DNA of 64,000 nucleotides from Thermoanaerobaculia bacterium (lineage in GTDB: Bacteria; Acidobacteriota; Thermoanaerobaculia; UBA5066): contig DATKLW010000082.1 in assembly GCA_035542215.1 (NCBI GenBank), positions 1,733 to 65,732 of the forward strand. Direction: 5' to 3'. Positions within the stretch are counted from its first letter, which is position 1. Each line of letters starts with the position of its first letter. Below are positions 11,897-61,246 of the stretch, one piece after another. The notes below the pieces were generated by a model. It saw only the letters and a list, made by a program, of their open reading frames with translations, was not told the origin of the DNA and did not search any database. The position numbers and the translations under genes are program-made.

Positions 11897-11940
11897 GATA
11901 TCGGCGCGGGCGGCCTCGCGCTCGCTCTCGCGCCGCGGCG

Positions 11941-20900: not shown

Positions 20901-21042
20901 AGACCTGGATCGTGGGGAACTCCACCTGGGGAAGCGGCGCCACCGGGAGAAAGAAATAGGCGATGCCGCCGGCCAGCGCGAGCGCCACCGTGAGAAGGCT
21001 CGTCCCGATCGGCCTGCGGATGAACGGCGCGGAAAGGCTCAT
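17932..21042 (-). CDS. mdtC: RND multidrug efflux permease, MdtC-like
   Basis: 1036 aa. The N-terminus [49 protein letters not shown] is typical of MdtC/AcrB-family pumps. ATGA overlap with the upstream RND gene. Confidence 0.9.
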
Positions 21043-24000: not shown

Positions 24001-24173
24001 ACGTCCGGGCTCGCGCCGGGATAGAACGTCAGCACCTGGATCGTCGGGTAGTCGACCTGCGGGAGCGCCGACACGGGGAGCTGATGGAAGCCGACGACGC
24101 CGATCAGCAGGAGTCCCGCCATCAGGAGGGACGTCGCGACCGGCCGCTCGATGAAGGGTCGGGAGGGGTTCAT
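21039..24173 (-). CDS. mdtB: RND multidrug efflux permease, MdtB-like
   Basis: Start re-set to the ATG at 24173 ([47 protein letters not shown]). The 395 upstream codons of the track ORF overlap the MFP gene out of frame and were rejected. Confidence 0.9.
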
Positions 24174-43651: not shown

Positions 43652-44470
43652 TCAGTCCGCGATCCGGCGTTTCGCGACGTGAATCGCGTCCACGGGCCGC
43701 TTCCACACGCTTCGGCGCGCCTCTCCGTCGAGCCACGATTCCGCAGGGGCCGGTCTCCCGAACCGGAACCCCTGCGCGAACGGGATCCCGAGTTCCGCGA
43801 TCGTGCGTTCGTCCTCCGGGGTCTCGACGCCCTCGGCGATGACGCGGGCGCCCAGTCGGCGGGAGAGGTCCTGCAGACCCAGGAGAATCCCGGCCATCCG
43901 GGGGTTCCGGTGGACGTTCTTCACGAAGGACCGGTCCACCTTGATCCACTCGGGCGCGAGGTGGAGGAGGTGGTGGAGCCAGGGGTAGCGTGCGCCGACG
44001 TCGTCGAGGGCGAGCCGGATCCCCCGCCGGCGAAACGGAACGAGGCTCTTCGCGATCGCCCGCGCGTGCTCCCCGTCCAGCGACTCGGAGATCTCGAGGA
44101 TCACGCCCGCGGGGTCCACCTCGAGAGCGTCCATGAGCGAAAAGAGCGCGTCCCCGTCGAGCGACATCGTCCCGGCCTGGATGTTGATGAAGAGCTGGGA
44201 ACCTCTCGGGAGCGCCCGGCCGGAGCGCAGCGCCGAGTCGACGCACGCGAGGTCGAGCTGTCTCAGCACCCCGTCCTCGAGGGCGTGGCCGCGCCCGAAG
44301 AGCGTCTCGGGCATCGACAGCGCCGTGCCGCGCGGCCCGCGGAGGAGCGCCTCGAATCCGAGCTTCCTGCCGCTCGAGAGCTCGACGATGGGCTGGAAAG
44401 CCATGGACAGGAATCCGCGCGCGAGGAGAGACGCCACCTCGTCGCCGGCAGGCGCCGGACGGGCCTTCAT
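43652..44470 (-). CDS. Stand-alone EAL-domain c-di-GMP phosphodiesterase (last gene of the che-like operon)
   Basis: The ATG at 44470 is in an ATGA overlap with the cheB stop. The motifs EALLR, QLFINI, EISES, DDVG, IKVDRSF, EGVET and QGFRFGRP are all present, so it looks catalytically competent. No REC, GGDEF or sensor domain. Confidence 0.88.
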   Translation of the reverse strand: MKARPAPAGDEVASLLARGFLSMAFQPIVELSSGRKLGFEALLRGPRGTALSMPETLFGRGHALEDGVLRQLDLACVDSALRSGRALPRGSQLFINIQAGTMSLDGDALFSLMDALEVDPAGVILEISESLDGEHARAIAKSLVPFRRRGIRLALDDVGARYPWLHHLLHLAPEWIKVDRSFVKNVHRNPRMAGILLGLQDLSRRLGARVIAEGVETPEDERTIAELGIPFAQGFRFGRPAPAESWLDGEARRSVWKRPVDAIHVAKRRIAD

Positions 44471-45552
44471 CGCACCGCACGCTCGGCGCGCGCGGCCCGG
44501 AGAATCGCTCCGGCGATGCGCGAGAGCGGTTGGACCTCGCAGACCGCGCCGCGCGCGATCGCGGCCCCCGGCATTCCGAAGACGACGCAGGACGCTTCGT
44601 CCTGCGCGATCGTGTGGGCGCCGGCGAGCTTCATCTCGAGAAGGCCGTCGGCGCCGTCGGTCCCCATGCCGGTCAGGATGGCGCCGACCGCGTTGACGCC
44701 GGCGGCCTGCGCCGTCGACCAGAACAGGACGTCGGCGCTCGGGCGGTGGCGGGACACGAGCGGACCGTTCGTCACTTCCACGGAGTAGCGGGTGCCCGTC
44801 CGCCGGAGCCGCGTGTGCCGGTTGCCCGGCGCGACGAGGGCGCGCCCTTCGCGGACCGGGTCGCCGTTCTCTGCTTCCTTCACCTCGATCGTGCAGACCT
44901 CGTTCAGGCGCCGGGCGAATGCGGCCGTGAAGACCTCGGGCATGTGCTGGACGATCACGAGTCCCGGGGCGTCCGGCGAAAGCTCCTTGAGGAGCTGGCC
45001 GAGGGCCTCGGTCCCACCCGTCGACGCGGCGACGACGACGACGCGATCCGTCGAGACCGTCGGCGGCGCGCCGTGCGCGGGAAACGCCACCTTCGCGCTG
45101 ACGCTCGGCTCGGGCGGGCGCGCCGCCGGGCCGCGCCGGCGCACGCGCGCCCGCGCCGCGGCCCGGACGGAGTCCGCGAGGAGGGTCGCCGATTCCTCGA
45201 GGAAGCCCTGGACGCCGAGGCGCGGCTTCGTGACGATCTCGATCGCGCCCTCCTCGAGCGCCCGCAGCGCCGCTTCCGTCCCGGGGCCGGTCAGCGCCGA
45301 GCACACGACGACGGGGATCGGGTCGGAGCTCATGACGCTGCGAAGGAACGTGAGCCCGTCCATCCGCGGCATCTCGAGGTCGAGGAGGATCACGTCGGGC
45401 CGCGCCTTCTTGATCCGCTCGAACGCGATGATCGGGTCGGCCGCGATGTCGACGACGTGTCCCTCGCGGGCGAGCATTCCGCCGAGGACCTCGCGCACGA
45501 GCGCCGAGTCGTCCACCACGAGAACGCGGAGGGGCGGGGGCGGCGCGCTCAA
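44467..45552 (-). CDS. cheB: Chemotaxis response regulator protein-glutamate methylesterase
   Basis: REC domain (RVLVVDDSALVRE...DLEMPRMDG) plus a methylesterase domain (AASTGGTEAL, VQHMP, LTGMGTDGA). The start is proposed at the TTG at 45552 (TTGA overlap with the cheR stop). Confidence 0.9.
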   Translation of the reverse strand: MSAPPPPLRVLVVDDSALVREVLGGMLAREGHVVDIAADPIIAFERIKKARPDVILLDLEMPRMDGLTFLRSVMSSDPIPVVVCSALTGPGTEAALRALEEGAIEIVTKPRLGVQGFLEESATLLADSVRAAARARVRRRGPAARPPEPSVSAKVAFPAHGAPPTVSTDRVVVVAASTGGTEALGQLLKELSPDAPGLVIVQHMPEVFTAAFARRLNEVCTIEVKEAENGDPVREGRALVAPGNRHTRLRRTGTRYSVEVTNGPLVSRHRPSADVLFWSTAQAAGVNAVGAILTGMGTDGADGLLEMKLAGAHTIAQDEASCVVFGMPGAAIARGAVCEVQPLSRIAGAILRAARAERAVR

Positions 45553-46430
45553 CGCCCGGCCCCGCTCCGGCTTCCGCGGGGGAGCGCTTCGCCGTTCGTG
45601 TACGCCGATGGCATCAGCGGGCGCACGCGGTCCGTGATCCCGTTCAGGGTCTCCGCGTGGCCGACGAAGAAGAAGCCGCCGGGCGCGAGCCGGTCGAGGA
45701 GCCGGGAGACGGCGCGCCGCTTGCCGTCGGCGTCGAAGTAGATCAGGACGTTCCGGCAGAGGATCGCGTCGAAGGGTCCGTCCGGCGGCCAGTTGTCGCC
45801 CGCGAGGTTGATGCGCTCGAACCGGACGAGCGCCCGGAGCTCGGGACCGGCCTTCATCTTCCCGTCCTCGGGACCGGTTCCGCGAAGCATGTAGGCCTTC
45901 AGGAGGTCCGGCGGGATCTCGCGGGACCGCTCGAGGGGCCAGACGCCCGCGCGCGCGCGGGCGAGCGCTTTGGTCGAGAGGTCCGTCGCCAGGATCTCGA
46001 GATCCCACGTCTTCGGTAAGTACGAGGCCAGGAGCATCGCCAGCGAGAACGGCTCCTCTCCCGTCGAGCAGCCGGCGCTCCAGATCCGCACCCGGTGCGG
46101 CCGTCTTCTTCGCGACCCTTCTTCGAGCCAGGCCGGGAGGACGCGCTCCTTCAGGAACTCGAACTGCCCGGGCTCCCGGAAGAACCGGGTCTCGTTCGTC
46201 GCGATCGCGTCGAGCATGAGGACCCGCTCGTCCGCGCTCGCCTCGACGCGACCCAGGTACTCCTCGAACGAGTCCAGCCCGAGCTCGCGCAGGCGGCGGC
46301 CCAGCCGCCCGACCAGAAGCGCCCTCTTGGTTTCGGAGAGGTTGATCCCCGATTCACGGAGGATCATGGCCTGGAATCCGCGGAAGACGCGGGGCGTCAC
46401 CTGTTCGAGGCCTGGCGACGTTCCCCGCAT
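45549..46430 (-). CDS. cheR: Chemotaxis protein methyltransferase
   Basis: The ATG at 46430 gives a CheR N-terminal helical domain, TRFFRE and the SAM-binding motif IWSAGCSTGEEP. Confidence 0.9.
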   Translation of the reverse strand: MRGTSPGLEQVTPRVFRGFQAMILRESGINLSETKRALLVGRLGRRLRELGLDSFEEYLGRVEASADERVLMLDAIATNETRFFREPGQFEFLKERVLPAWLEEGSRRRRPHRVRIWSAGCSTGEEPFSLAMLLASYLPKTWDLEILATDLSTKALARARAGVWPLERSREIPPDLLKAYMLRGTGPEDGKMKAGPELRALVRFERINLAGDNWPPDGPFDAILCRNVLIYFDADGKRRAVSRLLDRLAPGGFFFVGHAETLNGITDRVRPLMPSAYTNGEALPRGSRSGAGR

Positions 46431-46437
46431 CTTCGGC

Positions 46438-48111
46438 TCAGAAGCGCCTGAAGTGACGGTCCGACTCGGCCGCATGGGATCCGACAGCGCGCTTCGTGAC
46501 GACGACGGCGGGCTGCGAGACGACCGCCCGCGCCGGAAGGGTCCGCGCCGCGTGCGTCCCTGAGACGCTCCGCGGCTCCGGCCGGGCCTGCAGCTCCGGG
46601 GCGCCCGTGCGGAAGAACGCAAGGACCTGCTGGAGGCCCTCCGCCTGGGTCGCCATCTCTTCGGCGGTCGCGGCGAACTCTTCCGCCGCGGCCGCGTTGC
46701 GCTGCGTGACCTGGTCGACCTGGTTCATGGCGCGGTTGACCTGCGTGACGCCCGACGCCTGCTCCCGGGACGCGGCGGCGACCTCCTGGACGAGCTCGGT
46801 CGTCTTGCGGATCGCGGGAACGAGCGCGCCGAGGGACTGGCTCGCGCGCTCGGCGACCGTCACGCTCGACCCGCTCAGCGTGCTGATGTCCCGGGCGGCG
46901 GTCTGGCTGCGCTCGGCGAGCTTGCGCACCTCGGCCGCCACGACCGCGAAGCCGCGGCCGTGGTCGCCGGCGCGCGCCGCCTCGATCGCGGCGTTGAGGG
47001 CGAGGAGGTTCGTCTGGTAGGCGATGTCCTCGACGAACGAGATCTTCTCCGCGATCGACCTCATCGCTCCGAGCGTTTCGGAGACGGCCTTCTCGCTCGC
47101 TTCGCCCTCGCGCGCGCCCTGCACCGCCATCTCCTCCATGCGCCGGCTGTTCTCGGCGTTCTGCGTGATCGACGCGCTCATCTCCTGGAGCGAGGCGGAG
47201 GTCTCCTGGATCGAGGAGGCCTGTTCTCCGGCGCCGCTCGAGAGCTGCTCCGATCCGGATGCGAGCTGGCGGGACGCCGCGGCCGACTGGGTCGTCGAAC
47301 GCTGGACCTGGACGAGGACTCCCTCGAACGTCTCGAGCATCTCGTTCAGCGACGCCCCCATTTCTCCGATCTCGTCCCTGCCGTGCGAGGCGATGCGCGC
47401 GGAGAGGTCTCCGCCCGCCGCGCGCCGGGCTTGCGTCGTGACGTCGACGAGCGGGCCGACCACACGCGCGGCGAAGACGAAGCCCGAGGCGACGCCGATG
47501 GCGACGAGAGCGAGGATCACGAGGATCGTCAGGATCGTCGTGCGGCTCGATGTCGCCCGGATCCGCTCGGCGAACGCCTCGGCGTTCTTCTGCCGGACCC
47601 CGGCGAGCTTCCCGAGGATCGCCCGCGCCTTCTCGAACTTCCGCTCGCCCTCGCTCATGGACAGCTCGATCGCGTCCTTCCGGGCGTCCGCGGACTCCTC
47701 CCCGAGGAGCCGGACGGCCTCGAGGGAGGACTTCTCCCAGTCCCCGTAGAGCGCCTCGAATTCGGGCCGGAGGGCCTTCTCGTCGTCGCTCGAGGGAACT
47801 GTCTTGTACTTCTCCCATGCCGCCCTCGCCAGGGTGAGCCGCAACCCGTGCTCCTTGCGCGCCCGCGCGGCTTCGTCGGACGCCTGCCTGACGAGCATGA
47901 GGCTGCGCTCTTCGACGCGCGCACGCTCCATGTCCCGGTCGATCTCCGCGATCGACGCGAGGGCGGGAAGGTCCTCACGGGTCGCGACCTGGAACGCCGA
48001 GGCCGCCCAGCGGAAATTTCCGAGGTTCCAGACGCACGCACCGGCGCCGATGAGGCTCCCGAGGAAGAACGCGCCGATGAATTTCGAGCGCAGCCTGATG
48101 TTTCGGGTCAT
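46438..48111 (-). CDS. Methyl-accepting chemotaxis protein (four-helix-bundle-like periplasmic domain + HAMP + MA domain)
   Basis: Two TM helices, HAMP, and the invariant hairpin [42 protein letters not shown]. Confidence 0.92.
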
Positions 48112-48132: not shown

Positions 48133-48702
48133 TTACTTGCCGATTGCCTTCTCGAGCCGTGTCAGGTTGACGCCCACGACGAGGACGCCGATCGGCTTGC
48201 CGAACGAGAGCACCGGGGCCGAAATCTGGATGTCATACGTGTCCGTGTCCGAGTCGAGCTCGGGCGGGCCCTGCCAGGGCATCCCGGTCCTGAAGGGGAG
48301 GTCGAACCGGGGCTGGCCCGCGTAGAAATAGTTCTCGGTCTTCTCGGTCATGGCGATCTGGTCCCCCCGCGTCCCACAGACGAAGGCGCGAACGTAGATC
48401 CCGTTCGAGCTTTCGAGCCTTCGGGCGAGGACCTTCCCGGCGTCGTTGGTCATGTAGGTCCGGAGGAGGTCGTCGCTCCGTCGAACCGTCTTCCATTTCT
48501 CGTTGTCCATGCCGCTGAGGGGCCCCATCTGGTTCTTCCAGATGACGGTCTTCACGAGGAGCGGGTCGGCGGCCCAGGCCTTGATCTGGACGATGTGACG
48601 GTCGAGCTCCTTCTGGAGCGCCGCGGTCATCTCGAACGTTGCGAGCGCCCGCCACGCGAGGACGCTCGCGAGCACGACGGCGAGGGTTGCGAGTTTTCTC
48701 AT
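48133..48702 (-). CDS. Secreted stand-alone Cache/PDC-like sensor-domain protein (paralog 2, 189 aa)
   Basis: The ATG at 48702 gives the signal peptide MRKLATLAVVLASVLA. The motifs WAADPLLVK, GMDNEKWKTVRR, YVRAF, TEKTENYFYAGQPRFDLPF and GKPIGVLVVGVNL resemble periplasmic Cache/PDC modules of receptors. No TM helix or output domain. Confidence 0.6.
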   Translation of the reverse strand: MRKLATLAVVLASVLAWRALATFEMTAALQKELDRHIVQIKAWAADPLLVKTVIWKNQMGPLSGMDNEKWKTVRRSDDLLRTYMTNDAGKVLARRLESSNGIYVRAFVCGTRGDQIAMTEKTENYFYAGQPRFDLPFRTGMPWQGPPELDSDTDTYDIQISAPVLSFGKPIGVLVVGVNLTRLEKAIGK

Positions 48703-48722: not shown

Positions 48723-49295
48723 TCACGGCTTCGAGCTCGGGTTCGAGAGCTTCGAAAGGTTCACGCCGACCACGAGGACGCCGACGGGCTTTCCGCGCGA
48801 GAGAACGGGCACCGCGATCTGGACGCCGTGAATTTCGGTCACTGTGTCGAGCTCGGGCTTTCCTTGCCACGTCTTGCCGGTCGTGAACGGAACGTCGAAC
48901 TTGGCCTGCCCCGCGTGGAGATAGCTGATCGTCTTCTCGGTGAAGGCCGCCTTCTCGCCCCGTGCGCCGTTCAGGAACGCCCTCAGGTAGAGGCCGTCCG
49001 ATTCCGAGATCTTCCGGCCGAGGAATTTCGCGGCCCCGTTCTGGGAGAGGTCCTTCACGACGTCGTCGGTCCGCCTCACGGACTTCCACTTCTCGTTGTC
49101 CATCCCCGCGATGGGGCCCTTCTCGTTCCGGTCGAGGACGGCCTTCACGACGATCGGGCTCGCGGCCCAGCCCTTCAGAACCTCGGTCTTCTGGGCCAGG
49201 ACTTTCTCGAGGTCCGGCGTGATGTCGACGGCACCGAGGGAACCTGCGAGGCCGATCACGAGGAGAGCCAGCGGCATTCTGAGGGTGGGTGTCAT
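48723..49295 (-). CDS. Secreted stand-alone Cache/PDC-like sensor-domain protein (paralog 1, 190 aa)
   Basis: The ATG at 49295 gives the signal peptide MTPTLRMPLALLVIGLAGSLGA. About half of the aligned residues are identical, by eye, to the adjacent paralog (GMDNEKWKSVRR, YLRAF, TEKTISYLHAGQAKFDVPF, GKPVGVLVVGVNL). Confidence 0.6.
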   Translation of the reverse strand: MTPTLRMPLALLVIGLAGSLGAVDITPDLEKVLAQKTEVLKGWAASPIVVKAVLDRNEKGPIAGMDNEKWKSVRRTDDVVKDLSQNGAAKFLGRKISESDGLYLRAFLNGARGEKAAFTEKTISYLHAGQAKFDVPFTTGKTWQGKPELDTVTEIHGVQIAVPVLSRGKPVGVLVVGVNLSKLSNPSSKP

Positions 49296-49324: not shown

Positions 49325-49873
49325 TCACTGGCCGGCGGCCGAGTCGGCTCCGGCGGAGGCGCCGTCGGAAGGGGGGGCGACGGACGCGACCCTCAGGAGC
49401 TCGGCGGCCGAAAGCACGCGGTCGATGTCGAGGAGAAGCACGAACCGGTCCGTGAGGCGCCCGATGCCGAGCAGGTAATCGACGCGCACCGCCGTCCCGA
49501 ATGCGGGCGCCGGCTCGATGTCTCCGGGCAGGACGTCCAGGACCTGGCTCACCGAGTCCGCCATGACGCCCATGACGACCCGCTCGCCCTCGAGGTCGGT
49601 CTCGACGACGACGATGCAGGTCCGGCGCGTGACGGCGCTCGGAGGGAGGCCGAACTTGACCGCGAGGTCGATGACGGGGACGACGCTTCCGCGGAGGTTC
49701 ATGACGCCGCGGACCCACGGCGGCGTCGCCGGGACCCGCGTGACAGCGTCGTATTCGATGATCTCCTTGACGCGGAGAATCCCGATCGCACACTCGTTCC
49801 CGGCGATGAAGAAGCCGAGGTACTGAGCCGAGGCCGTTGGTCCGAGGGTCTCTTCCATCTTCGTTTTCCCCAC
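49325..49873 (-). CDS. cheW: Chemotaxis coupling protein CheW
   Basis: CheW domain: YLGFFIAGNECAIGILRVKEII...PWVRGVMNLRGSVVPVIDL...LLLDIDRVL. Confidence 0.9.
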   Translation of the reverse strand: MGKTKMEETLGPTASAQYLGFFIAGNECAIGILRVKEIIEYDAVTRVPATPPWVRGVMNLRGSVVPVIDLAVKFGLPPSAVTRRTCIVVVETDLEGERVVMGVMADSVSQVLDVLPGDIEPAPAFGTAVRVDYLLGIGRLTDRFVLLLDIDRVLSAAELLRVASVAPPSDGASAGADSAAGQ

Positions 49874-49875
49874 GG

Positions 49876-51510
49876 TCAGGCCCCGCCTGCCGGCGCGGCG
49901 AAGGCCGCCATCTCACCCGACGCACCGAGCGCGGGGCGCCCGGGCACAGCCGCCTCCTGGCGGAGCGGAATTCTCGTCGCATCGACCGGGTGCCGCGCGC
50001 GTCCGGCGTCGGCTTTCCCGGCCCGGAAGAAGGACATGAGCTCCTGGAGCGCCTCGGCCTGGGCCGCCATCTCCTCCGCCGTCGAGGCGAGCTCCTCGGA
50101 CGCCGCCGCGTTGCGCTGCGTGACGTCATCCATCTGCGTCATCGTCCGGTTCATCTGGGAGACGCCCGACGCCTGCTCGGCCGTGGCGGCCGCGACCTCC
50201 TGGACGAGATCGGCGGTCTTCCGGATCGCGGGAACGAGCGCGGAGATGAGCTGGCCCGAGCGCTCGGCGACCCGGACGCTCGAGGATGCGACCTCGGAGA
50301 TCTCCCTGGCGGCTTGCTGACTTCTCTCGGCGAGCTTGCGGACCTCGGTCGCGACGACCGCGAAGCCCCTGCCGTGCTCGCCCGCGCGCGCGGCCTCGAT
50401 CGCGGCGTTGAGCGCGAGGAGGTTCGTCTGATAGGCGATCTCCTCGATGATCACGATCCTCTCCGCAATCGTCTTCATCGCGCGGACGGTCTCCGAGACC
50501 ACGCGGCCGCTCTCCTCGCCCTCCTCGGCTCCACGGCGCGCCATCCGCTCCATCTCGCGGCCGTTCTCGCGGTTCTGGCTGATCGACGCGCTCATCTGCT
50601 CGAGGGACGCCGTCGTCTCCTCGACCGAGGCCGCCTGCTCGCTCGACGACTCCGAGAGCGACTGGCACGACGCGGACACCTGTTGCGCGGCCTGGGCGAC
50701 GGCGCGGGCCCCCTCGTCGACCTGCCCGAGGACACGCCTCAGGGTCTGGGCCATGTCCTGCATCGCCGCGTCGAGCTGGCCTGTCTCGTCGCGGTGGATG
50801 GCGACGTCCTCTCCCCCGAGGTCGCCCCGCGCGATCCGCTCGGCGCGGGCGACGGCCGCCTTCAACGGCACGGCGATGCTCCGTGCGACGGCCCAGCCGA
50901 TCCCCACTGCGAGAAGGGCCGCAAAGACGATGAAGACGGTCATGACCTGGCGGGCGGCACGGACCTTTTGAGCCGCCTCCTCCGTGGCCTGGACGAGGCC
51001 TTCGTTCTGCGCCGCGAGAAACCGGTACCAGGCGGCGCGGTACTCCAGGAGCTTCGGGACCATGACGTCGTGGGCGACCGCCACGGCGGCGTCGCGCTTG
51101 CCGCTTTCGAGGAGACTTCTCGCGTGGGCCCGGCTCTCGAGGTACGGGCTGCGCAGCGCCTTGACCTCGGCGAAAAGCGCCCGGTCGTGGTCGGACGCGA
51201 GGAGGGGCTCGATTTTCGCGAGCCCGGCCCCGATCAGGTTGCTGTTCTCCTGGTTCTGCGCGAGGAGCGCCTGTTCGGGCTGCCCTCCCGAAACGAGGAA
51301 AAGCTGCATCGTGATCCGCGCGTTGTCGACCGAGCGCTCGAGGACCTCGTTCGTGAGCGTCACGAGCGCGAACCGCTCGCGCGTGACCGTCCGGAGGTTC
51401 GTGTCCAGCCGCGTCGTCGTCCTCAAGCCGAACCAGCCGATCGTGAGGGCGAAGACGATGACGATCCCAAACCCGGCGAGGAGCCTTTGCCCGATGCGGA
51501 ACGATCTCAC
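49876..51510 (-). CDS. Methyl-accepting chemotaxis protein (4HB-like sensor + HAMP + MA domain)
   Basis: Start re-set to the GTG at 51510, with a GGAGGG Shine-Dalgarno 6 nt upstream. Two TM helices, HAMP, and the hairpin [42 protein letters not shown]. The 263 upstream codons of the track ORF overlap cheA out of frame. Confidence 0.9.
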
Positions 51511-51512
51511 GC

Positions 51513-53219
51513 TTACCCTCCAATTGCGGCGAGGGTCCCGTGCGGGTCGGCCGTGTCGGGAGCCCGCTCGTTCAGGACCTGCTTGAGAAGCTTCGAAACG
51601 TCGAGGATCAGCGCTGCGCGCCCGTCCCCGAGGATGGCGCTTCCCGCGACGGCCACGACGCCGCGGAAGAGCGCCCCGAGAGGCTTGATGACGACCTGGT
51701 GCCCGCCGAGGAGCGCGTCCACGACGAACCCGGCCTGGCCCGACTCGCTCCGGACCACGACGACGTTCTCGCGCGCGGAGGGCGGCCCGTCGATGTCGAA
51801 ATGCTCGCGGAGTCTCAGCCATGGAAGCGGAACGCCGCGGAGGCCCATGAGGCCCGAGAGGCCCGCTCCGCGGGCGTCCGCCGGGAGATCGAGGCACTCG
51901 ACGACGGAGTCCATCGGGAGGACGAACGACTCGCCCGCCGCGCGGACCACGAAGCCGTCGATGAGGGCGAGCGTGAGCGGCAGGCGGATCCGAAACGTCG
52001 TCCCGCGGCCCGGCTCGCTCTGCACCTCGATGGAGCCCCGAAGCGCCTCGACGTCGCGGAGGACGACGTCCATCCCGACGCCGCGGCCCGACAGTTCCGT
52101 GATGCCGGCGGCCGTCGAGACGCCGGGCGCGAAGACGAGCTCGAAGGCTTCGGATCCACGCGGCTCGTCGGTCCCGACGAGCCCCAGCGCGCGGGCGCGC
52201 TCGACAAGGAGCCGGCGGTTGATGCCGGCGCCGTCGTCGGAGAGCTCGATCACGATCGCGCCCGCGTCGTGGTACGCGCGGATCCGGAGCGTGCCCCACG
52301 GCGTCTTGCCGGCGGCTGTCCTCACGTCCGGCGCCTCGATCCCGTGGTCGACCGCGTTCCGCACCATGTGGGTGAGGGGGTCGCGGATCTTCTCGATGAC
52401 GCGCATGTCGAGCTCGATCTCGCCGCCGTCGATCGAAAGCCGGACCTGCTTGCCGAGCGCCCGAGACACGTCGCGCACCGTGCGCGCAAACTGGTGAAGC
52501 GTCGGGCCGATCGGGATCATGCGGATGCGCGTGACGAGCTCCTGGAGGTCCGCCTCGAGCGTGTCGGCCTCGCGGTGGATCTCGAGGGCCTTGCCGGCCT
52601 CGGGCGTCCCGCCGTGTTCGAGGTGCTGCCGCAGCCGGCCCCGCAAGACCGCGATCTCCCCGACGAGGTCGAGCATCTGGTCGAGCTTCTCGACGTCGAC
52701 GCGCAGCGTGCGCGTGGGGAGGTTCAGGTCGGGAACCTCGTTCGCGCGGTCCGCCGCGCGGCGGCGCGGGTGCACGACGGCCGCGGCGCGGGTCGCGCCC
52801 GGCGCGTCCTGCTCCCGCGCGCTGGACACGCGCGCGAGGAGCGCGCGATGGGACGGCTGCATCTCGTCGAGCCCGCTCGCGGCGTCGGCGAGGAGTTGGC
52901 GGAGTGCGTCGACGGACTCGAGGAGGAGCGTCACGAGCTCCGGCGTGACGGCCAGGCTCCGGTTGCGGACGCGCTCGAGGAGGTCCTCGAGGATGTGAGT
53001 GAACTCGGTGAGGGCGCTGAAGCCGAGGGTGGCCGAGTTTCCCTTCAGGGTGTGCGCGGCACGGAAGATCGCCTGAAGGAGCTCGTCGTCGCCCGGGTGC
53101 TCCTCGAGCGCCACGAGCGCCTCCTCCATCTGGACGAGGCGCTCCTCGGCTTCCGCCAGGAACACTCCCAGAAGGGCCTTGCGGTCGAACTCGGAGCCGG
53201 ACGCGTCGCTCGTCGTCAC
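51513..53219 (-). CDS. cheA: Chemotaxis histidine kinase CheA (Hpt, dimerisation, HATPase and CheW-like domains; no fused REC)
   Basis: The GTG at 53219 is in a GTGA overlap with the cheD stop. Hpt motif [17 protein letters not shown] box [14 protein letters not shown]1 DDGAGI, G2 [10 protein letters not shown], and a C-terminal CheW-like P5 domain. Confidence 0.9.
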
Positions 53220-53743
53220 AGCGTCTTCACCGAGACGTCTCCCGACGCGGTCCGGAAGACGATCTTGCGGCCTCGCGTCCCGCCGACCTCGCTCTGGACG
53301 ACGGGGATTCCCGCTTCCTCGAGGAACTCGAGCGCGACGGCGACGTTCTGCGCGCCGATCGGGACCCGGTCGCCCGCCGGCTCGAACTGCGATGCGCCGC
53401 CGAAAACGCGCGCGGTCAGGTTCCGGCGCTCGCAGCCGAGCGTGAGGATTCTCTCGAGGAGGATCTCCATCGCGCTGCGCCCGAAGCGGCCCGCGGAGCT
53501 CTCGTCGCGCGTCCGGTGGGGGAGCAGGAAATGGTTCAGGCCGCCGTGCCGGGTCGCGCCGTCCCAGAAGCACACGCAGACGCACGAGCCGAGGACTGTC
53601 GAGACGGCGAGCGCATCGGCCGTCACGAGCAGCTCGCCCGGATAGAGATACACGCTGGGGACCCCCTGGTCCTCCCGGCCCGCCGGGCGCTCGTTCCGCG
53701 CGAGGGCGCGTGCGAGAGGCGTGGGGACGCGGGAGTCCGCCAT
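53216..53743 (-). CDS. cheD: Chemoreceptor glutamine deamidase CheD
   Basis: The ATG at 53743 gives [10 protein letters not shown]...[13 protein letters not shown]...GGLNHFLLP...[11 protein letters not shown], the CheD signature. It overlaps the upstream stop by 1 nt. Confidence 0.85.
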
Positions 53744-54501
53744 CAGTGCTTTCTGCCAGCGGACGTGCCGGAAAGCAGGGCCGACGAGGCGAGGGCGGTG
53801 CCGGCCTCGGCCGCGAGAAGGTTCAGGAGGTCGTGGTCGATGGGCTCGAGCCGCCCGGCCTTCTGCGGGAGAAGGTTGAACAGCGTGATGACGAAGGCGA
53901 CCGAGTCGCGGAATTTCACGGGGAAGCATGCGGTGATGCCTTCGCCGTCGACGCCCGGCGCAACGGGCAGGTAGGGCTGTCCGGTCAGCGCCGTGCGGCC
54001 GATGGAGCCCTCTCCGAGGGCGATCTCGGCGGCGCCGAGCGCCTCGGCGCCCTTCGAGGCCGCCAGCGTGAGCCTGCCGTCCTTGACCTCGAAAACGGCG
54101 ACCTGTTCGCAGCCGACGAGGAACTCGATGATGTCGATGATGACGGCGAGGATCTCCTCGCGCTGGAGCGAAGAGTGGAGGCGCACGCTTGCGACGTAGA
54201 GGTTGGCGAGCGCCGTGTTCTGCTGCTCGACGAGGACGTACTCCTCGACGTAGCGCCGGTTTTCCGCGGCGATCTCCGCGAGCTTCCGCTCGAGCTTGAC
54301 CTCCTCGAGCTTGTGCCGGTCGATCGTCTCGCGGTTTGTGAGGAGCTCTTCCTCCAGCCGCGCTTTGTCGAGCTGGAGGGTCGCGGACGCGACGCGGAGC
54401 TTCTCGTTCTCGCCCAGCAGATCCTGGACGTAACGGTGGGTGTCCGCCTGGACGCGCCGGACGTAGGCCTCGAGCGAATCGCGTTCTCCGGTCGGCGCCA
54501 T
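53743..54501 (-). CDS. Coiled-coil + GAF-like domain protein (paralog B, 252 aa)
   Basis: The ATG at 54501 lies 1 nt after the cheY stop. The N-terminal ~110 aa are heptad-rich (LRVASATLQLDKARLEEELL...LERKLAEIAAENRRY) and end in ALANLYVAS. The C-terminal ~130 aa are GAF-like (ILAVIIDIIEFLVGCEQVAVFEV...GSIGRTALTGQPY...LLNLLAAEAGTAL). Confidence 0.65.
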   Translation of the reverse strand: MAPTGERDSLEAYVRRVQADTHRYVQDLLGENEKLRVASATLQLDKARLEEELLTNRETIDRHKLEEVKLERKLAEIAAENRRYVEEYVLVEQQNTALANLYVASVRLHSSLQREEILAVIIDIIEFLVGCEQVAVFEVKDGRLTLAASKGAEALGAAEIALGEGSIGRTALTGQPYLPVAPGVDGEGITACFPVKFRDSVAFVITLFNLLPQKAGRLEPIDHDLLNLLAAEAGTALASSALLSGTSAGRKH

Positions 54502-54502
54502 C

Positions 54503-54874
54503 TCAGTCCCCCAGCACATTGCGGACTTTGGTCAGGAGCTCGAGCCCGTTGACCGGCTTCGTGACGTAGTCGGCGGCGCCGGCCGTGAAGCCGCTCTCGA
54601 CGCTCTCGCCCTCGCCGCGGGTCGTGACCATGATCACGGGAATCGCCTTCGTCTCGTCTCGCCCCTTGAGCGCCGCGCAGGCTTCGAAGCCGTTCATCTT
54701 CGGCATGACGACGTCGAGAAGGACGAGGTCGGGCCGCTCGCGGACAGCGGCCTCGACGCCCTGCTGCCCGTCCTTGGCGACGAGGAGCTCGTAGTTCGCC
54801 TTGCTCAGGATCATCTTGGCCATCATCAAGCTCGTCTCCGAGTCGTCGACGAGCAGGATCCGTTTCCGCGCCAT
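54503..54874 (-). CDS. cheY: Single-domain CheY-like response regulator
   Basis: The ATG at 54874 has AAGGAGG upstream. Sequence MARKRILLVDDSETSLMM...DLVLLDVVMPKMNG...PVIMVTT...DYVTKP. Confidence 0.88.
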   Translation of the reverse strand: MARKRILLVDDSETSLMMAKMILSKANYELLVAKDGQQGVEAAVRERPDLVLLDVVMPKMNGFEACAALKGRDETKAIPVIMVTTRGEGESVESGFTAGAADYVTKPVNGLELLTKVRNVLGD

Positions 54875-54932
54875 GGGGGTGGCCTCCTTGTCTCTCTGGT
54901 CTCTGGGGTTCTCGGTCGGGGTCATCACGCGC

Positions 54933-55724
54933 TCAGCTCTTCACGAGGTCGAGGAACTTCTGCACCGTCTTCAGCTTGCGATCCACGGAGACGTAGCACT
55001 GCGAGGAGACGAGGGCGACCGCCGCCTGCTCCCCGACGAGGTCGAACAGCTTGCGGTCCAGCTCGGAGAAGCTCTTCTTGTGCGAAAGCAGCGCGTAGAT
55101 CGTGAGGACGCCGACGAGGCGGTCGCTCAGGAACAGGGGCGTGCAGCAGATCGGGCCTCGCGCCGCGGGGGCGGTCCCGTTCGTCTCGGCGAACACGGTC
55201 TGGCGCCGCGCGACGGCGTCGCGCTCGAGGCCGTGGGTCAGGGCCGCGAGATGGGTGATGTTCGGGGGAAGGTCGCCTTCCCGGGCCGCAATCACGAAGT
55301 CGTTCCGCACGTCGTCGACGAGATAGACGACGAACTCGCCGGCTCCGATCAGGTTGATCGCGATGTCCGCGATTGCGCGGACGACGGCGGCGGGGTCGAG
55401 CGTCACGTGGAGCTGGAAGGTCGCGGCGTAGAGGTTTGCAAGGCTGGTGGCGTGCTCCTCGAGGTCGGCGTACCGTCGCGCGAGGTCGAGGTTCTCCTCC
55501 GCGAGCGAGAGGGCTTCGCGGCTCAGCCGCTCGTGCTCGCCCTTCTCGACCTCGACGTCCTTCTCGAGCATCGACTCGGCCATCGCGATGTCGGACTCGA
55601 GGCTCTGGACCCGGCCCCGGAGGCGCTCGTTCTCGCGCATGAGGTCGTCGCGGAGCTCGCGGCTCCGCTCGGCCAGCTCGTGGAAGAGCCCCCGGACCGC
55701 CTCGGCACGATCGGGCGCCGTCAT
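54933..55724 (-). CDS. Coiled-coil + GAF-like domain protein (paralog A, 263 aa)
   Basis: The ATG at 55724 is in an ATGA overlap with the upstream gene. Same architecture as 53743-54501: a coiled coil ending in SLANLYAAT, then a GAF-like region (VVRAIADIAINLIGAGEFVVYLV...LFDLVGEQAAVAL). Confidence 0.65.
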   Translation of the reverse strand: MTAPDRAEAVRGLFHELAERSRELRDDLMRENERLRGRVQSLESDIAMAESMLEKDVEVEKGEHERLSREALSLAEENLDLARRYADLEEHATSLANLYAATFQLHVTLDPAAVVRAIADIAINLIGAGEFVVYLVDDVRNDFVIAAREGDLPPNITHLAALTHGLERDAVARRQTVFAETNGTAPAARGPICCTPLFLSDRLVGVLTIYALLSHKKSFSELDRKLFDLVGEQAAVALVSSQCYVSVDRKLKTVQKFLDLVKS

Positions 55725-56953
55725 CGCGGCCTCTTGAGGAGGGCCGAGCGATCCGCGGCGGCACGCTTGGCGAGCTCGCGCAGCGCGGCGTTCTCGAGCG
55801 TCACGGAGACCTGGCGCGCGAGCGCGATGAGAGCCCTCGCGTCCGGAGCGCCCGAGAGCGCCGAGCGGCAGAAGAGGATCAGCGAAACGTCGCCGAGGAC
55901 GAAAAGCGGGACGGCGAGGACGACGCGCGCTCCGGAGGCGGCCGAGGGGCCGACGGGCTCGAGGCCACCCGAGGAGTTCCGGGCCACGAAGCCGACGTAG
56001 GGCCGGCGGCTCATCGCGATCGTCTCGAAGAGGGGGCACTCGCCCGCCGCGAAGAAGGTCTTCGCTTCGCTCGGGCGCCCCTCGGACCAGGCGAACGCCT
56101 CGCCGAACTGGCCGAGAACGCGGAACCCGTCTTTTGCACGGAGCACGAGGCCGCCGTCCGCGTAGAGCTCCGCGGCGTACCGGAGAAGCAGGAGGCCGAT
56201 CTCGCCGCGGCTCGTCGCGACGAAGAGCTCCTCGCTGATCGAAAGATACGAGGCGGCAGTTCGGGCGCCGAGCGTGTCCTCCGCCTCGGGAAGAGCGGGT
56301 GCGCCCTCGTCGAACCAGCGGATGATCTTCTCGGCGTCTTCCTCGACCTCGCGGGCGTGCGCGCCGGGCTCGTCGATGGCCGCGGGCGGATTCCCGGCGC
56401 CCGCTCCGCTCCGGTTCCGGCGGTCCTGCAGCAGGCTCGCCTCGAGGAGGAGGTGGCGCGGCTCGACGCCCTTCTCATGGACGAGGTCGAGCGCGAGCTG
56501 CGACGTCCCGTGCGGAAGCGCGAGAGCGCCGACGCGGAATTCGAAGTCCGTGTTCGTCCAGGCCGTAAGCCGCTCGATCGTCTCGGCCATCTGCGCCTTG
56601 ACGACTTCCTCGATCCGGGCCCGGCGGACGTACGAGAGCTCGACGAGCGCGTCGCCGAGCCGCATCCCCGGGCACTGGGCGAGGTACTGGAGCGCTTCTC
56701 TCACGTCGTTCTGCGTGAGGTCGCCGCTCTCGATGAGCCGGTCCCCGAGCGACTGGTAGGACTCCGTGCAGGTCGTCTGGATGATGGCGCCGCCGCGGAA
56801 CGCGATGAGTGCTTTCTGTCCGTCTCCGCGGTGCAGGAGGAGCGCGCCCGTCTTCGAGCTGACCTGGAGGACCTGGATGATGTCCGCCAGCGGGACGTCT
56901 TCGAGCCTTCCCGCGAAGGCGTTCTCGGAGGCCTCGACCTCGACGACCGTCAT
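55721..56953 (-). CDS. PATAN (DUF4388) domain protein with tandem T2SSE_N/MshEN-like motifs and a C-terminal GAF-like domain
   Basis: The ATG at 56953 is in an ATGA overlap with the upstream REC gene. GRLEDVPLADIIQVLQVSSKTGALLLHRGDGQKALIAFRGGAII matches the DUF4388/PATAN pattern. This is followed by SLGDRLIESGDLTQNDVREALQYL and RLGDALVELSYVRRARIEEVVKAQ. The C-terminal ~170 aa are GAF-like. Confidence 0.7.
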   Translation of the reverse strand: MTVVEVEASENAFAGRLEDVPLADIIQVLQVSSKTGALLLHRGDGQKALIAFRGGAIIQTTCTESYQSLGDRLIESGDLTQNDVREALQYLAQCPGMRLGDALVELSYVRRARIEEVVKAQMAETIERLTAWTNTDFEFRVGALALPHGTSQLALDLVHEKGVEPRHLLLEASLLQDRRNRSGAGAGNPPAAIDEPGAHAREVEEDAEKIIRWFDEGAPALPEAEDTLGARTAASYLSISEELFVATSRGEIGLLLLRYAAELYADGGLVLRAKDGFRVLGQFGEAFAWSEGRPSEAKTFFAAGECPLFETIAMSRRPYVGFVARNSSGGLEPVGPSAASGARVVLAVPLFVLGDVSLILFCRSALSGAPDARALIALARQVSVTLENAALRELAKRAAADRSALLKRPR

Positions 56954-57330
56954 GGCCGGGCCTCTCCGGCCAGCGCGAGCCGGAGGCGCTCGAGCGACAC
57001 GGGCTTCTCGAAGTAGAACGTCGCCCCGAGCCGCAATGCTTTCTCCATGACCGTGGGGTTTCCGAAGCCCGTCAGGACGATGACGGGGCATTTCGGGCGG
57101 AGACGCCTGCAGGCGGACAGGACCTCGAGGCCGAGCGTCCTCTCGTCCCCGCCCAGGTGAAGGTCCGTGATGATCGCGCGATACTCGCGCCGCGCGAGGA
57201 CCGCGAGGGCTGCGCGGGCGGAATCGGCCGTGTCGACGCGGAAATCCATCTGCTCGAGTGCTCGGCTGAGCATGAAGAGAACCGAGGGGCTGTCATCGAC
57301 GATGAGAACTCGAGGGGCTTCGCGCCGCAC
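56950..57330 (-). CDS. Single-domain response-regulator receiver (first gene of the che-like operon)
   Basis: RVLIVDDSPSVLFML...AIITDLHLGG...VIVLTGFG...YFEKP. Start preferred at the GTG at 57330, with GGAG 5 nt upstream. The track start (TTG 57369) is possible. Confidence 0.85.
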   Translation of the reverse strand: MRREAPRVLIVDDSPSVLFMLSRALEQMDFRVDTADSARAALAVLARREYRAIITDLHLGGDERTLGLEVLSACRRLRPKCPVIVLTGFGNPTVMEKALRLGATFYFEKPVSLERLRLALAGEARP

Positions 57331-57409
57331 CGCGACTCCAGCCCGACGATTCGTTGCTGATATCCCCAATGAAGGCCTTCCTCCGCGGACTTGATCCGCC
57401 CGGAGTCAG

Positions 57410-57425
57410 TGCACGGCCCGCGCCA
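57410..57425 (-). promoter_or_regulatory. Candidate sigma-54 (-24/-12) promoter of the che-like operon
   Basis: The minus strand reads TGGCGC-GGGCC-GTGCA, against the consensus TGGCAC-N5-TTGCA. It lies in the 224-bp gap between the NtrC-family gene and the first operon gene, about 70-80 nt upstream of the start codon. Confidence 0.5.
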
Positions 57426-57593: not shown

Positions 57594-58948
<1,355 letters not shown>

Positions 58949-58952
<4 letters not shown>

Positions 58953-61246
58953 GGGCAGGCCCGCACGGGCAGCTCGAGGGCGAACACGGCGCCGCCCCCC
59001 GGATGCGATTCGGCCCGCAGCGACCCGCCGTGGTCGAGCGCGATGCGCCGGGAGATCGCGAGGCCCATGCCCGCGCTCTCGCGCCGCGTCGAGAAGAACG
59101 GCTCGAAGATCCGCTCGGTCAGGTCGCTCGCGATCGGAGGCCCTTCGTTGTGGAACCGGAGGACGACGCGATCGCCGGCGGTGTTCCGCGTCGCCGAGAT
59201 CGAGACCCGCCCGCCCGGCGGCGAGTACGAGATCGCGTTCTGGATCAGGTTCAGGAGGACCTGGTGGATCTGGTCCTCGTCGACGAAGACGTCCGGAAGG
59301 CCCTCTTCGAACGCCGTCGTGATCCGCAGCGACTTCTCCGCGGCGAGGCCGCGGTTCAGCGTGGCGGCGGCCTCGATGAGCCCGGCCACCGCGAAGGGGC
59401 CGGGCTGGAGGGGCCGCCTCGAGGCGAGGAGCTGAAGTTGCCGCACGAGGCGGTCCATCCGAAGGACGTCTCCGTGGATGACCTCGAACGTCCGCCGCTG
59501 CTCCGCGTCGAGCGCGAGCTCCTCCATGAGGAGCTGGATCCCGCTGCTGATCGCAAAGAGGGGGTTCTTGACTTCGTGCGCGATGTTCGCCGCGATCTCG
59601 CCGATGGCCGCGAGCGTCTGCTGCTCCTGCAGCCGCTTCTGCTGGGCGAGGAGATCCGTGATGTCCCGCTCGATGCAGACGAAGCTCGTGAGGTTCCCGA
59701 AGGCGTCGCGGACGGGCGTGATCACGGCATCGGCCTCGTAGTGAGTCCCGTCCCTCTTCCGGTTCGTGAAGCGGCCGCGCCATGTCGCGCCCGAGAGGAT
59801 CGTGCGCCAGAGCGTCTCGTAGTGCGCGGCGTCGTGCACCCCGCTGCGGAGAAGCCGCGGGTTCGCTCCGATCGCGGACTCGCGGTCGTAGCCGGTCATC
59901 GCCGTGAACGCCGCGTTCACGTACTGGATCGTCCCGCCCGTGTCCGTGATCACGACGGACTGGGCGACCTGCTCCACGGCCGCCGCGAGCCGCCGGATCT
60001 CGGACTCGACGCGCCGCTGATCCGTCTCGTCCTGGAGCGTCCCGAAGATCCGCACGACCCGGCCGGAAACGTCGAAAACGGCGCTCGCGTGCGCGTGGAT
60101 GTGCCGAATCTCGCCGTCGTTCGGCCGCACGATCCGGTAGAGGAGGTCCGGCGTGAGGACTCCGGCGACGGACCGCTCCATCTCCTGCCGCACGCGCTCG
60201 CGGTCGTCCGCGTGGACGAGGGAGAGCCAGCTCGCGGCGTCGTGGGGAAACCCCGGCGGGACGCCGAACATCTCGTCCACGGTGGACGAGACCGAGAAGG
60301 TGTCGGAGGCCGGGTGGTACGAATACCAGCCGAGCTTCGCGACGCGCTGCGCCTCCGCGAGCCGGTTTTCGCTCGCCTTGAGCGCCGTCTCGCGGACACG
60401 CACCGCCTCCTCCGCCGACTTCTGCTCCGTGATGTCGACGCAGGTGCCGGCCATCCGGAACGGCTTCCCGGCGGCGTCGCGCTCGGCGCTTCCGACGTCG
60501 TGCCACCAGGCGTACCCGCCGTCCGCGCGCCGGATCCGGTACGCGACGTCGTAGGGGACTCCCCTCGAAAGATGGGCGTCGAGCGAGGCCGTCACGGCCC
60601 CGACGTCGTCGGCGTGGACGAGCGCCGCCCAGCCCTCGACGGTCCGTGGGAATCCGCCGGGGGCGAAACCGAGCATCGCGTCGACGAAGGCGGTCCACTC
60701 GATGTCCCCGGACACGAGGTCCCATTCCCAGAGCGCCACGCGCCCGGCGGTCGCCGCGCGGTCGAGCTGCTCCTTTTCTCGGCGCATCGCGGTCTCGGCC
60801 CTGAGGCTCTCCCGCAGCGCGGCTTTCGTGACGTCGCGGACGACCGCGAGCCGCGCGGGGCGCCCCCGGTACGTGCAGTTCCGGCCCCGGGCCTCGACGA
60901 GGACGATCGACCCGTCCTTGCGGACCGCGTGGTGCTCGTAGAGATCCTCGTCGCCCGTCGTCTCCCGCTCGCGGACGAGATCCTGGTGCACCGGGGCGAC
61001 GAAGGTCATCAGGGGCGCCCCGATGAGCTCCTCGCGCGTGTAACCGAGCATCGAAGCGAGACGCGCGTTGGCCTCGACGACGACCTCGTCCTGCGTCAGG
61101 CCGACGCCGTCGAAGGTCGTCTCAGCGAGGAGCTCGAACCAGGCTGCGGAGGCGCGAGGAGCGCTCTCGTCCGCCGGGACCGGACGCACGCCGGCCCCCG
61201 ACCTGCGCCCGCGAGCGCTGGAGACCCTGGTCATGGCCAAGGGCAT
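58949..61246 (-). CDS. Cytoplasmic multi-PAS sensor histidine kinase (about four PAS/PAC units + HisKA + HATPase_c)
   Basis: No TM helices. Repeated PAS/PAC signatures (e.g. WEWDLVSGDIEWT, YRIRRADGGYAWW, YRIVRPNDGEIRHI, TNRKRDGTHYEAD), H-box HEVKNPLFAI, N box NLIQNAISYS, G box AGMGLAI. Confidence 0.9.

Follow-up and report, generated by a model that had tools for sequence, protein, structure and literature searches.

We analysed a window of 64 kb (64,000 nucleotides (nt), ~70% G+C) from a Thermoanaerobaculia bacterium (Acidobacteriota; GenBank assembly GCA_035542215.1, contig DATKLW010000082.1, positions 1,733 to 65,732), and focused on a gene in a che-like operon that encodes a protein of 410 amino acids (aa), here called PATAN-X, in which a PATAN domain (Pfam DUF4388, PF14332) is joined to a C-terminal domain with a GAF fold. 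The gene row was defined by third-position G+C together with Pfam scans of the window. The che-like operon and its upstream regulators form one long, densely packed row with all genes on the minus strand:

58949-61246, minus strand: PAS histidine kinase, upstream of the operon.
57594-58952, minus strand: NtrC-type sigma-54 activator, directly upstream of the operon.
57410-57425, minus strand: sigma-54-type promoter candidate TGGCGCgggccGTGCA, 5' of the first operon gene.
56950-57369, minus strand: REC1, single-domain receiver (REC) of 139 aa from a TTG start (Pfam Response_reg, E=1.5e-22).
55721-56953, minus strand: PATAN-X, the PATAN-GAF protein of 410 aa (Pfam DUF4388, E=4.8e-19).
54933-55724, minus strand: ccGAF1, coiled-coil and GAF protein (Pfam GAF_2, E=9e-11), with an ATGA overlap with PATAN-X.
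54503-54928, minus strand: REC2, CheY-like receiver (Pfam Response_reg, E=1.2e-26).
53743-54519, minus strand: ccGAF2, paralogue of ccGAF1 (BLASTP against ccGAF1, 30% identity, E=4e-20; weak Pfam GAF_2).
53216-53743, minus strand: CheD (Pfam CheD, E=1.2e-26).
51513-53219, minus strand: CheA with Hpt, dimerisation, ATPase and CheW domains (Pfam).
49876-51510, minus strand: methyl-accepting chemotaxis protein (MCP) with a four-helix-bundle sensor (Pfam).
49325-49873, minus strand: CheW (Pfam CheW, E=4.2e-36).
48723-49277 and 48133-48675, minus strand: two small PDC/Cache-like paralogues (sub-cut-off Pfam MCP-like_PDC_1 matches).
46438-48111, minus strand: second MCP (Pfam).
45549-46400, minus strand: CheR (Pfam).
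44467-45552, minus strand: CheB (Pfam).
43652-44470, minus strand: stand-alone EAL protein, the final operon gene (Pfam EAL, E=4.6e-39).

REC1, the PATAN-X gene and ccGAF1 are tied together by two ATGA overlaps, i.e. the TGA of REC1 overlaps the ATG of PATAN-X at 56953, and the second overlap lies at 55721-55724. An earlier note on this DNA had described the receiver as a separate first gene with an ATGA overlap to the PATAN gene and had placed an EAL gene at the end of the operon; both descriptions agree with the gene row. The EAL gene is followed by a tRNA-Thr gene on the opposite strand and, as read from the sequence, its product keeps the EALxR, N, E, DD, K, EGVE and Q residues. REC1 has an alternative start 13 codons later, the GTG at 57330 (126 aa), which is the one used in the NCBI entry of a protein with 99% identity. 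D25/D26, D69, T100 and K122 of REC1, likewise read from the sequence, make up the full receiver set. The true start of REC2 is probably the ATG at 54874, which would give 123 aa, the length of REC2 orthologues. The two small PDC/Cache-like paralogues between CheW and the second MCP have N-terminal hydrophobic segments and are conserved in related loci; they may bind ligands in the periplasm as separate partners of the four-helix-bundle MCPs.

The NtrC-type activator gene is separated from REC1 by a gap of 220 nt. This gap contains the sole sigma-54-type match within the window (0.11 expected), and counterparts, TGGCACatcctGTGCC and TGGCACgctgtGTGCC, are present at the equivalent position in two related loci, L004 (9483-9498) and L006 (5616-5631). 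Thus, a -24/-12 element, TGGC(A/G)C-N5-GTGC(A/C), is conserved 5' of the first che-like operon gene in three genomes. The exact sigma-54 pattern gave one intragenic match only over the related loci, and the conserved variant in L004 and L006 was found by direct reading of the intergenic regions. Because the conserved element lies directly downstream of the PAS-kinase/NtrC-activator pair, the whole chemosensory operon looks sigma-54 dependent, and its expression probably starts from a sigma-54 promoter controlled by this adjacent pair.

The anatomy of PATAN-X was derived from profile matches and from two AlphaFold models, i.e. a full-length model built on 62 orthologues (predicted local distance difference test (pLDDT) 81.5) and a model of aa 8-186 (predicted template modelling score (pTM) 0.79). 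The gene is divided as follows:

56768-56914, minus strand: first half of the PATAN core (aa 14-62; one helix and three strands), from the Pfam alignment and the AlphaFold models.
56591-56752, minus strand: alpha-clip (aa 68-121) with two 24-residue MshEN_N-type repeats, from NCBIfam, the PDB profile search and Foldseek.
56402-56590, minus strand: second half of the PATAN core (aa 122-184), in which the long helix continues and a strand rejoins the sheet, from Pfam and the models.
56282-56395, minus strand: low-confidence linker (aa 187-224), with pLDDT <50 and variable in the orthologue alignment.
55736-56281, minus strand: divergent GAF-fold domain (aa 225-406), from Foldseek.

The presence of a PATAN domain, as had been claimed from the letters of the DNA, was borne out by a match to PF14332 with 69 bits versus a cut-off of 25, and all 62 orthologues are annotated with this family. 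The match spans aa 14-177 in one stretch, covering profile positions 1-119 of 122, i.e. 164 residues over 119 profile positions. The repeats, SLGDRLIESGDLTQNDVREALQYL and RLGDALVELSYVRRARIEEVVKAQ, occupy aa 68-121 with the 6-residue spacer AQCPGM between them, and their previously given coordinates, length and spacing are exact. By contrast, the repeats do not follow the PATAN domain, as had been thought, but sit inside it. In the full-length model, a helix and three strands (13-62) are followed by four helices (69-130), a sheet-returning strand (135-141) and a helix (165-184), and then by the linker, which is disordered (187-224), and by the alpha/beta fold of the C-terminus (225-406). Because the Pfam match is unbroken across the repeats and the strand at 135-141 comes after the four helices, we conclude that the repeats are inserted within PATAN. 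When the repeat region was scanned alone, the second repeat and the next helix aligned to positions 47-86 of the Pfam PATAN profile. A BLASTP comparison with an insertion-less PATAN protein (P0174) aligned only the first 28 residues; therefore, the argument for an insertion stands on the Pfam alignment and the models. Apart from MshE on the alpha-clip, Foldseek searches with the N-terminal model returned no credible relative of the PATAN core, the MreB/actin and Lsm rows having a probability <0.2.

A GAF-like C-terminus had also been proposed, and this holds at the level of the fold: all 50 of the 50 best Foldseek matches of the C-terminal domain model in the PDB are GAF domains (best E=9e-6, target template modelling score 0.56-0.66), with the cyclic AMP (cAMP)-bound GAF 5w10 as the best structural match. 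By contrast, the profile check failed, as none of the GAF families PF01590, PF13185 and PF13492 was matched by the C-terminal 219 aa in Pfam at E<=10. Approximately 30 residues of this domain, including GFRVLGQFG, are invariant over the 62 orthologues, which extend down to 42% identity.

The insertion in PATAN-X is the known alpha-clip of PATAN rather than something gained by this gene alone. The alpha-clip was described by Makarova 2006 and likened to the N-termini of type II secretion system/type IV pilus ATPases, as cited in bioRxiv 10.1101/2021.06.11.447907; this description predates by ten years the demonstration that the MshE N-terminus binds cyclic di-GMP (c-di-GMP). Several comparisons argue that homology of the alpha-clip to the N-terminal bundle of MshE is real. 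NCBIfam NF053729 (c-di-GMP_motif, MshE-related) aligns with aa 69-121 along positions 2-53 of the 53 in the model, with a score of 38.2 bits against the curated cut-off of 38 (E=9.1e-10). This pass is marginal; given the E-value, the repeat pattern is not due to chance. Moreover, a profile of the 62 orthologues compared with all PDB sequences matched solely the N-termini of pilus/secretion ATPases, including Thermus thermophilus PilF (6f8l, E=5.5e-5) and Vibrio cholerae MshE (5HTL, E=2e-4), and in the latter alignment aa 68-124 of PATAN-X correspond in register to MshE residues 8-63. Finally, the best Foldseek match in the PDB of the predicted model of aa 8-186 is 5htl_B (58 columns, 1.0-1.5 Å, 28% identity), so that the superposition on a MshEN-c-di-GMP complex proposed earlier could indeed be made. 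A T2SSE_N (PF05157) check, also proposed, gave no match for the repeat region at E<=10, Pfam reporting DUF4388 only. According to the Wang 2016 supplement, helices 1-3 of MshEN_N, including the c-di-GMP-binding ones, are missing from the PF05157 model; this was therefore the wrong test, and the absent match is not evidence against homology.

The alpha-clip is also the rule in other PATAN proteins. When the profile of the N-terminal domain was scored against 1.84 billion representative proteins, 9626 clusters of the PATAN superfamily were obtained at E<=1e-3, 2521 of them with E<=1e-10, and the complete domain with the two-repeat insertion was present in 136 of the 143 best PATAN representatives. 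The composition of the insertion in these 136 proteins is:

Repeat 1, position 1: T in 34, S in 24, R in 20 and N in 20.
Repeat 1, position 24: Q in 81.
Repeat 2: R in 95, G in 128 and Q in 121.
Spacer: 6 residues in 61, 7 in 48 and 5 in 10.

Because they are common among the 136 representatives, Ser at position 1 and a six-residue spacer are normal for PATAN, and the loss of the repeat-1 Gln is the sole trait particular to the PATAN-X family. In a subset of 91 diverse PATAN proteins, all 91 have DUF4388, 18 have a receiver and two have a Pfam-detectable GAF; 64 match NF053729 at E<=1e-9 (best 9e-23), many far better than PATAN-X, and none of the 91 matches T2SSE_N. By these scores, PATAN-X is a weak example of a widespread PATAN pattern.

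In total, PATAN-X resembles the PATAN/alpha-clip family of Makarova, Koonin, Haselkorn & Galperin (2006) in its Pfam match, in the two-repeat, four-helix insert that separates the third strand from the long helix, in its link to a chemotaxis-like operon and in the presence of an MglA homologue in the same genome region. It differs in that the partner domain is a divergent GAF and not REC, in that the gene is always beside a gene for a coiled-coil GAF protein, and in that the Gln at position 24 of repeat 1, found in 81 of 136 other PATAN proteins, has been lost.

More than 120 clusters of full-length PATAN-GAF orthologues (42-92% identity, the nearest being 92% identical) were found, all in metagenome-assembled genomes of Acidobacteriota and confined to Thermoanaerobaculia and Holophagales. 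In 35 species-level loci, genes were labelled by BLAST against the proteins of the window and annotated examples were checked. The loci fall into four types:

Type A: REC1, PATAN-GAF, ccGAF1, REC2, ccGAF2, CheD, CheA and onwards, the order of the window; 4 loci (L007, L008, L009 and L011).
Type B: as type A, with REC1 replaced by a 198-aa PATAN-only paralogue with a 4-nt overlap; 4-5 loci.
Type C: CheR, CheB, ccGAF1 and PATAN-GAF at the end of the operon; ~23 loci.
Type D: ccGAF1, PATAN-GAF and REC without che genes; 2-3 loci.

The clades differ simply in how one common gene set is arranged. Loci of types A and B share the upstream genes for the PAS kinase and the NtrC-type activator. A ccGAF homologue is adjacent to the PATAN-GAF gene in 35 of 35 loci, often with an overlap. 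The ccGAF proteins match no NCBIfam model and Pfam recognises their GAF domains only; they seem to be an uncharacterised family of Che-operon proteins. The possibility that the GAF domain of PATAN-X and the neighbouring ccGAF are recent paralogues was considered and dropped, as BLASTP gave no similarity. The EAL gene is present in both type A loci that reach far enough (the window and L004), while it is absent from the type C and type D examples examined, in which no GGDEF or HD-GYP gene lies within 10 kb.

The stand-alone PATAN protein of 198 aa that occupies the REC1 slot (L006, 5643-6239; also L010, L012, L013 and L014) is ~60% identical to the N-terminal domain of PATAN-GAF, and in some of these loci a second full-length PATAN-GAF gene lies upstream of the PAS kinase gene. 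The PATAN-only paralogue and the second PATAN-GAF copies point to active duplication in this region; a stand-alone PATAN paralogue was also sought in the window and none was found. In a Holophagales operon (L001, 5138-7165), a HEAT-repeat protein of 675 aa is encoded between MCP and CheR.

Altogether, we favour, with moderate confidence, the interpretation that PATAN-X is an output/adaptor component of a sigma-54-controlled Che-like pathway in a Thermoanaerobaculia bacterium (Acidobacteriota). PATAN-X is a standard PATAN with the usual alpha-clip fused to a sequence-divergent GAF, and would be co-produced with its ccGAF partner, single-domain receivers, CheD, CheA, CheW, two MCPs, CheR and CheB. 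Alongside the domain identities, the operon content and the conserved pairing of the PATAN-GAF and ccGAF genes, all of which are observed, we infer a phosphorelay, a GAF-GAF pairing and a target as follows. CheA would phosphorylate the small receivers; these receivers and the GAF proteins would then alter what the PATAN/alpha-clip surface, likely the effector face, binds; and this surface, by analogy with the cyanobacterial PixG/PixE, would act on a pilus motor or on a polarity factor as its target. In this scheme, the MshE-like repeats would have come along with the PATAN domain, and the receiver gene upstream would be a local addition in one clade. PATAN-X is an ordinary member of the large PATAN family, and the new findings are mostly clean-up for this gene.

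The analogy is drawn from Synechocystis, in which PATAN regulators sit in Che-like operons and the PATAN domains of PixG and PixE bind PilB1 and PilC (bioRxiv 10.1101/2021.06.11.447907 and PMC12288463). The PatA-type regulators PixG, PixE, LsiR and PatA of the cyanobacterial Tax systems resemble PATAN-X in having PATAN encoded in a Che-like operon that also contains the gene of a plain CheY-like receiver and, as pathway outputs that bind PilB1/PilC, are likely functional analogues of it. They differ in that the PATAN-X polypeptide lacks a receiver, in that no pilus genes are nearby and in that the adjoining REC1 is clade-specific and has no link to PATAN-fused receivers.

A second comparison is with the Myxococcus xanthus-type alternative Che systems. 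These have non-flagellar outputs, e.g. Che7 with a HEAT-repeat partner and Che3 with an NtrC-like regulator. The system described here shares with them a Che core with unusual outputs, a nearby sigma-54 activator and, in the Holophagales operon, a HEAT-repeat gene that recalls the partner of Che7; it differs in that the putative outputs are PATAN-GAF and ccGAF.

Four points weigh against the adaptor interpretation. Firstly, no pilus genes are present in the 64-kb window and, therefore, the target is a guess. Secondly, BLASTP detected no similarity between the C-terminal GAF domain and the ccGAF proteins, so that the GAF-GAF pairing is suggested by adjacency alone. Thirdly, the high conservation of the GAF domain could mean binding of a small ligand instead. 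Finally, the adaptor account leaves open that the alpha-clip may bind c-di-GMP.

The last point leads to the alternative that survives best, i.e. that the alpha-clip is a working c-di-GMP site and PATAN-X a receptor that reads the level set by the EAL phosphodiesterase of the operon; we regard this as a tentative possibility. The MshEN motif as given in the earlier note, RLGxx(L/V/I)(L/V/I)xxG(L/V/I)(L/V/I)xxxxLxxxLxxQ, was correctly quoted and agrees with PMC5013675. Repeat 2 satisfies the published relaxed motif at 11 of 11 constrained positions. In motif numbering, S10, Y11, I17 and V21 of this repeat deviate from the strict form, so that four positions differ and not, as had been stated, the one with Ser in place of Gly. 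Repeat 1 misses the relaxed motif at positions 1 (S), 11 (D) and 24 (L) and, in 62 of 62 orthologues, has S/T/P and never R at position 1, and M/L/R and never Q at position 24.

In MshE, changes of L10, G11, L25, G40, L54 and L58 as well as of L29 and L39 cost >10-fold in affinity or abolish binding, while changes of Arg9 and Gln32 cost <5-fold. The affinity-critical positions are kept in PATAN-X as L69, G70, V84 and L88 in repeat 1 and L99, G100, I114 and V118 in repeat 2, all of which are conserved across the family. In motif 1 of the proven binders PA14_29490, NfrB and Bd2402, position 1 is P or F and/or position 24 is K (Wang 2016 supplement). The passing NF053729 score, the in-register profile matches to MshE and PilF, the superposition of the predicted bundle on c-di-GMP-bound 5HTL and the catalytic residues retained by the EAL protein are also consistent with a receptor. 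By contrast, the hydrophobic positions would stay conserved without a ligand because they form the core of the helix bundle. The absence of R and Q from repeat 1 extends to every orthologue. In PATAN-X itself, a D also occupies the hydrophobic position 11 of this repeat, and in repeat 2 the Gly of the turn is replaced by S. The spacer has 6 residues, with an invariant PGM in the orthologues, whereas the MshEN_N criterion is 5. Moreover, the score lies exactly at the threshold, and only 11 of the 62 orthologues reach the E-value equivalent to the NF053729 cut-off. Finally, the EAL gene, which had been taken to make functional sense of a c-di-GMP receptor, is present in the window and in the closest clade but missing from the operon in the majority clades, and no GGDEF gene is present in the window.

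PATAN-X shares with the MshEN_N bundle (MshE 5HTL, Bd2402, NfrB and PilF) a tandem pair of helix-turn-helix repeats of 24 residues each, the Leu-Gly and distal hydrophobic positions in both repeats and a predicted fold within ~1 Å. It differs in that the bundle is embedded in another domain, in that the spacer has 6 residues, in that repeat 1 lacks Arg and Gln, and in that neither an MshEN_C/T2SSE_N1 subdomain nor an ATPase is present.

The same question can be asked of the superfamily. Synechocystis encodes several PatA-type PATAN regulators. Four of these are named in bioRxiv 10.1101/2021.06.11.447907, while the census in the MshEN paper, repeated by a 2025 paper, counts three MshEN proteins in Synechocystis and one in Nostoc. 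Because the census stays at 3 and 1 despite these regulators, PATAN insertions were evidently not counted as receptors, and such specialist counts speak against a receptor. Our literature search found no paper that proposes or tests c-di-GMP binding by a PATAN/DUF4388 domain. That the alpha-clip is generally a genuine c-di-GMP site, read here by a Che-pathway output together with the EAL enzyme of the operon itself, strikes us as rather doubtful, somewhat more so than the tentative reading for PATAN-X on its own.

A further alternative is that PATAN-X is chiefly a small-molecule sensor, in which the GAF domain would bind a ligand, e.g. a cyclic nucleotide, and signal to the Che pathway through PATAN. 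The GAF fold, with cAMP-bound 5w10 as the closest structure, and the ~30 invariant C-terminal residues across the 62 orthologues fit this idea. Because the C-terminal domain matches no GAF family profile, ligand-binding residues are not transferable to it; moreover, many GAF domains mediate dimerisation only, and the constant neighbour of PATAN-X is another GAF protein, which fits pairing equally well. We therefore regard a sensor as unlikely.

The weakest alternative, which takes up the split, order-inverted PatA-like module of the earlier note, is that REC1 and the PATAN gene are the split and reordered halves of a PatA-type regulator that re-associate to work like PatA; for all that the two genes are coupled by an ATGA overlap, that this arrangement recurs in the closest relatives (L007, L008, L009 and L011) and that the phospho-acceptor set of REC1 is complete, we regard it as very improbable, since the layout occurs in 4 of the 35 loci while most carry no gene for a receiver in front of PATAN, a sister clade fills the slot with the PATAN-only paralogue at the same 4-nt overlap, PATAN-X has a GAF where REC would be, REC1 is nearest to ActR/NtrX/NtrC-type receivers (NCBIfam) with ~34 stand-alone orthologues and beyond them generic receivers at <=46% identity, and PF14332 was found in 0 of 78 REC1 homologues in a word-based, non-exhaustive search. 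The receiver-first coupling itself is real and a variant of gene order specific to one clade, and nothing indicates fission of a PatA-type gene.

Elsewhere in the window, the previously noted MglA-like GTPase was confirmed at 2863-4482 (minus strand), with aa 1-191 matching M. xanthus MglA (6h17, residues 1-192; E=1.5e-60). It carries a C-terminal extension of ~350 residues without a Pfam match, an unusual architecture for MglA. An open reading frame (ORF) of 121 aa at 2498-2863 (plus strand) adjoins this gene on the opposite strand, with overlapping stop-codon ends. Its product has a weak PilZ match (E=0.0032, 18.2 bits versus a cut-off of 22.5), and its NLSATG resembles the PilZ motif (D/N)xSxxG; it may be a degenerate c-di-GMP receptor beside the polarity GTPase. 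In the region 7629-13710 (minus strand), AT skew (0.21-0.25) and GC skew are strongly positive, and Pfam gave no match for the large ORFs of 1268, 154 and 589 aa located there; the skew is probably explained by the 1268-aa product, which reads as a Leu/Ala-rich polytopic membrane protein. At 17932-25429 (minus strand) and 25900-27366 (plus strand), two tandem genes for AcrB-type resistance-nodulation-division (RND) pumps lie together with genes for a membrane-fusion protein and an outer-membrane factor. Near these pumps, a protein of 488 aa has a C-terminal RelA/SpoT synthetase domain and 350 N-terminal residues without a match.

The combination of PATAN and a cryptic GAF with a constant ccGAF partner in a Che operon is a candidate chemosensory output module for Acidobacteriota, in which signalling has hardly been studied by experiment. 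The most interesting point is general and not local, i.e. most PATAN domains match a model of a c-di-GMP motif. If the alpha-clip does bind c-di-GMP, the whole PATAN superfamily, including the PatA/PixG-type regulators of heterocysts and phototaxis, would be a large uncounted class of c-di-GMP receptors, and an answer on binding by PATAN would also matter for phototaxis and heterocyst patterning in cyanobacteria.

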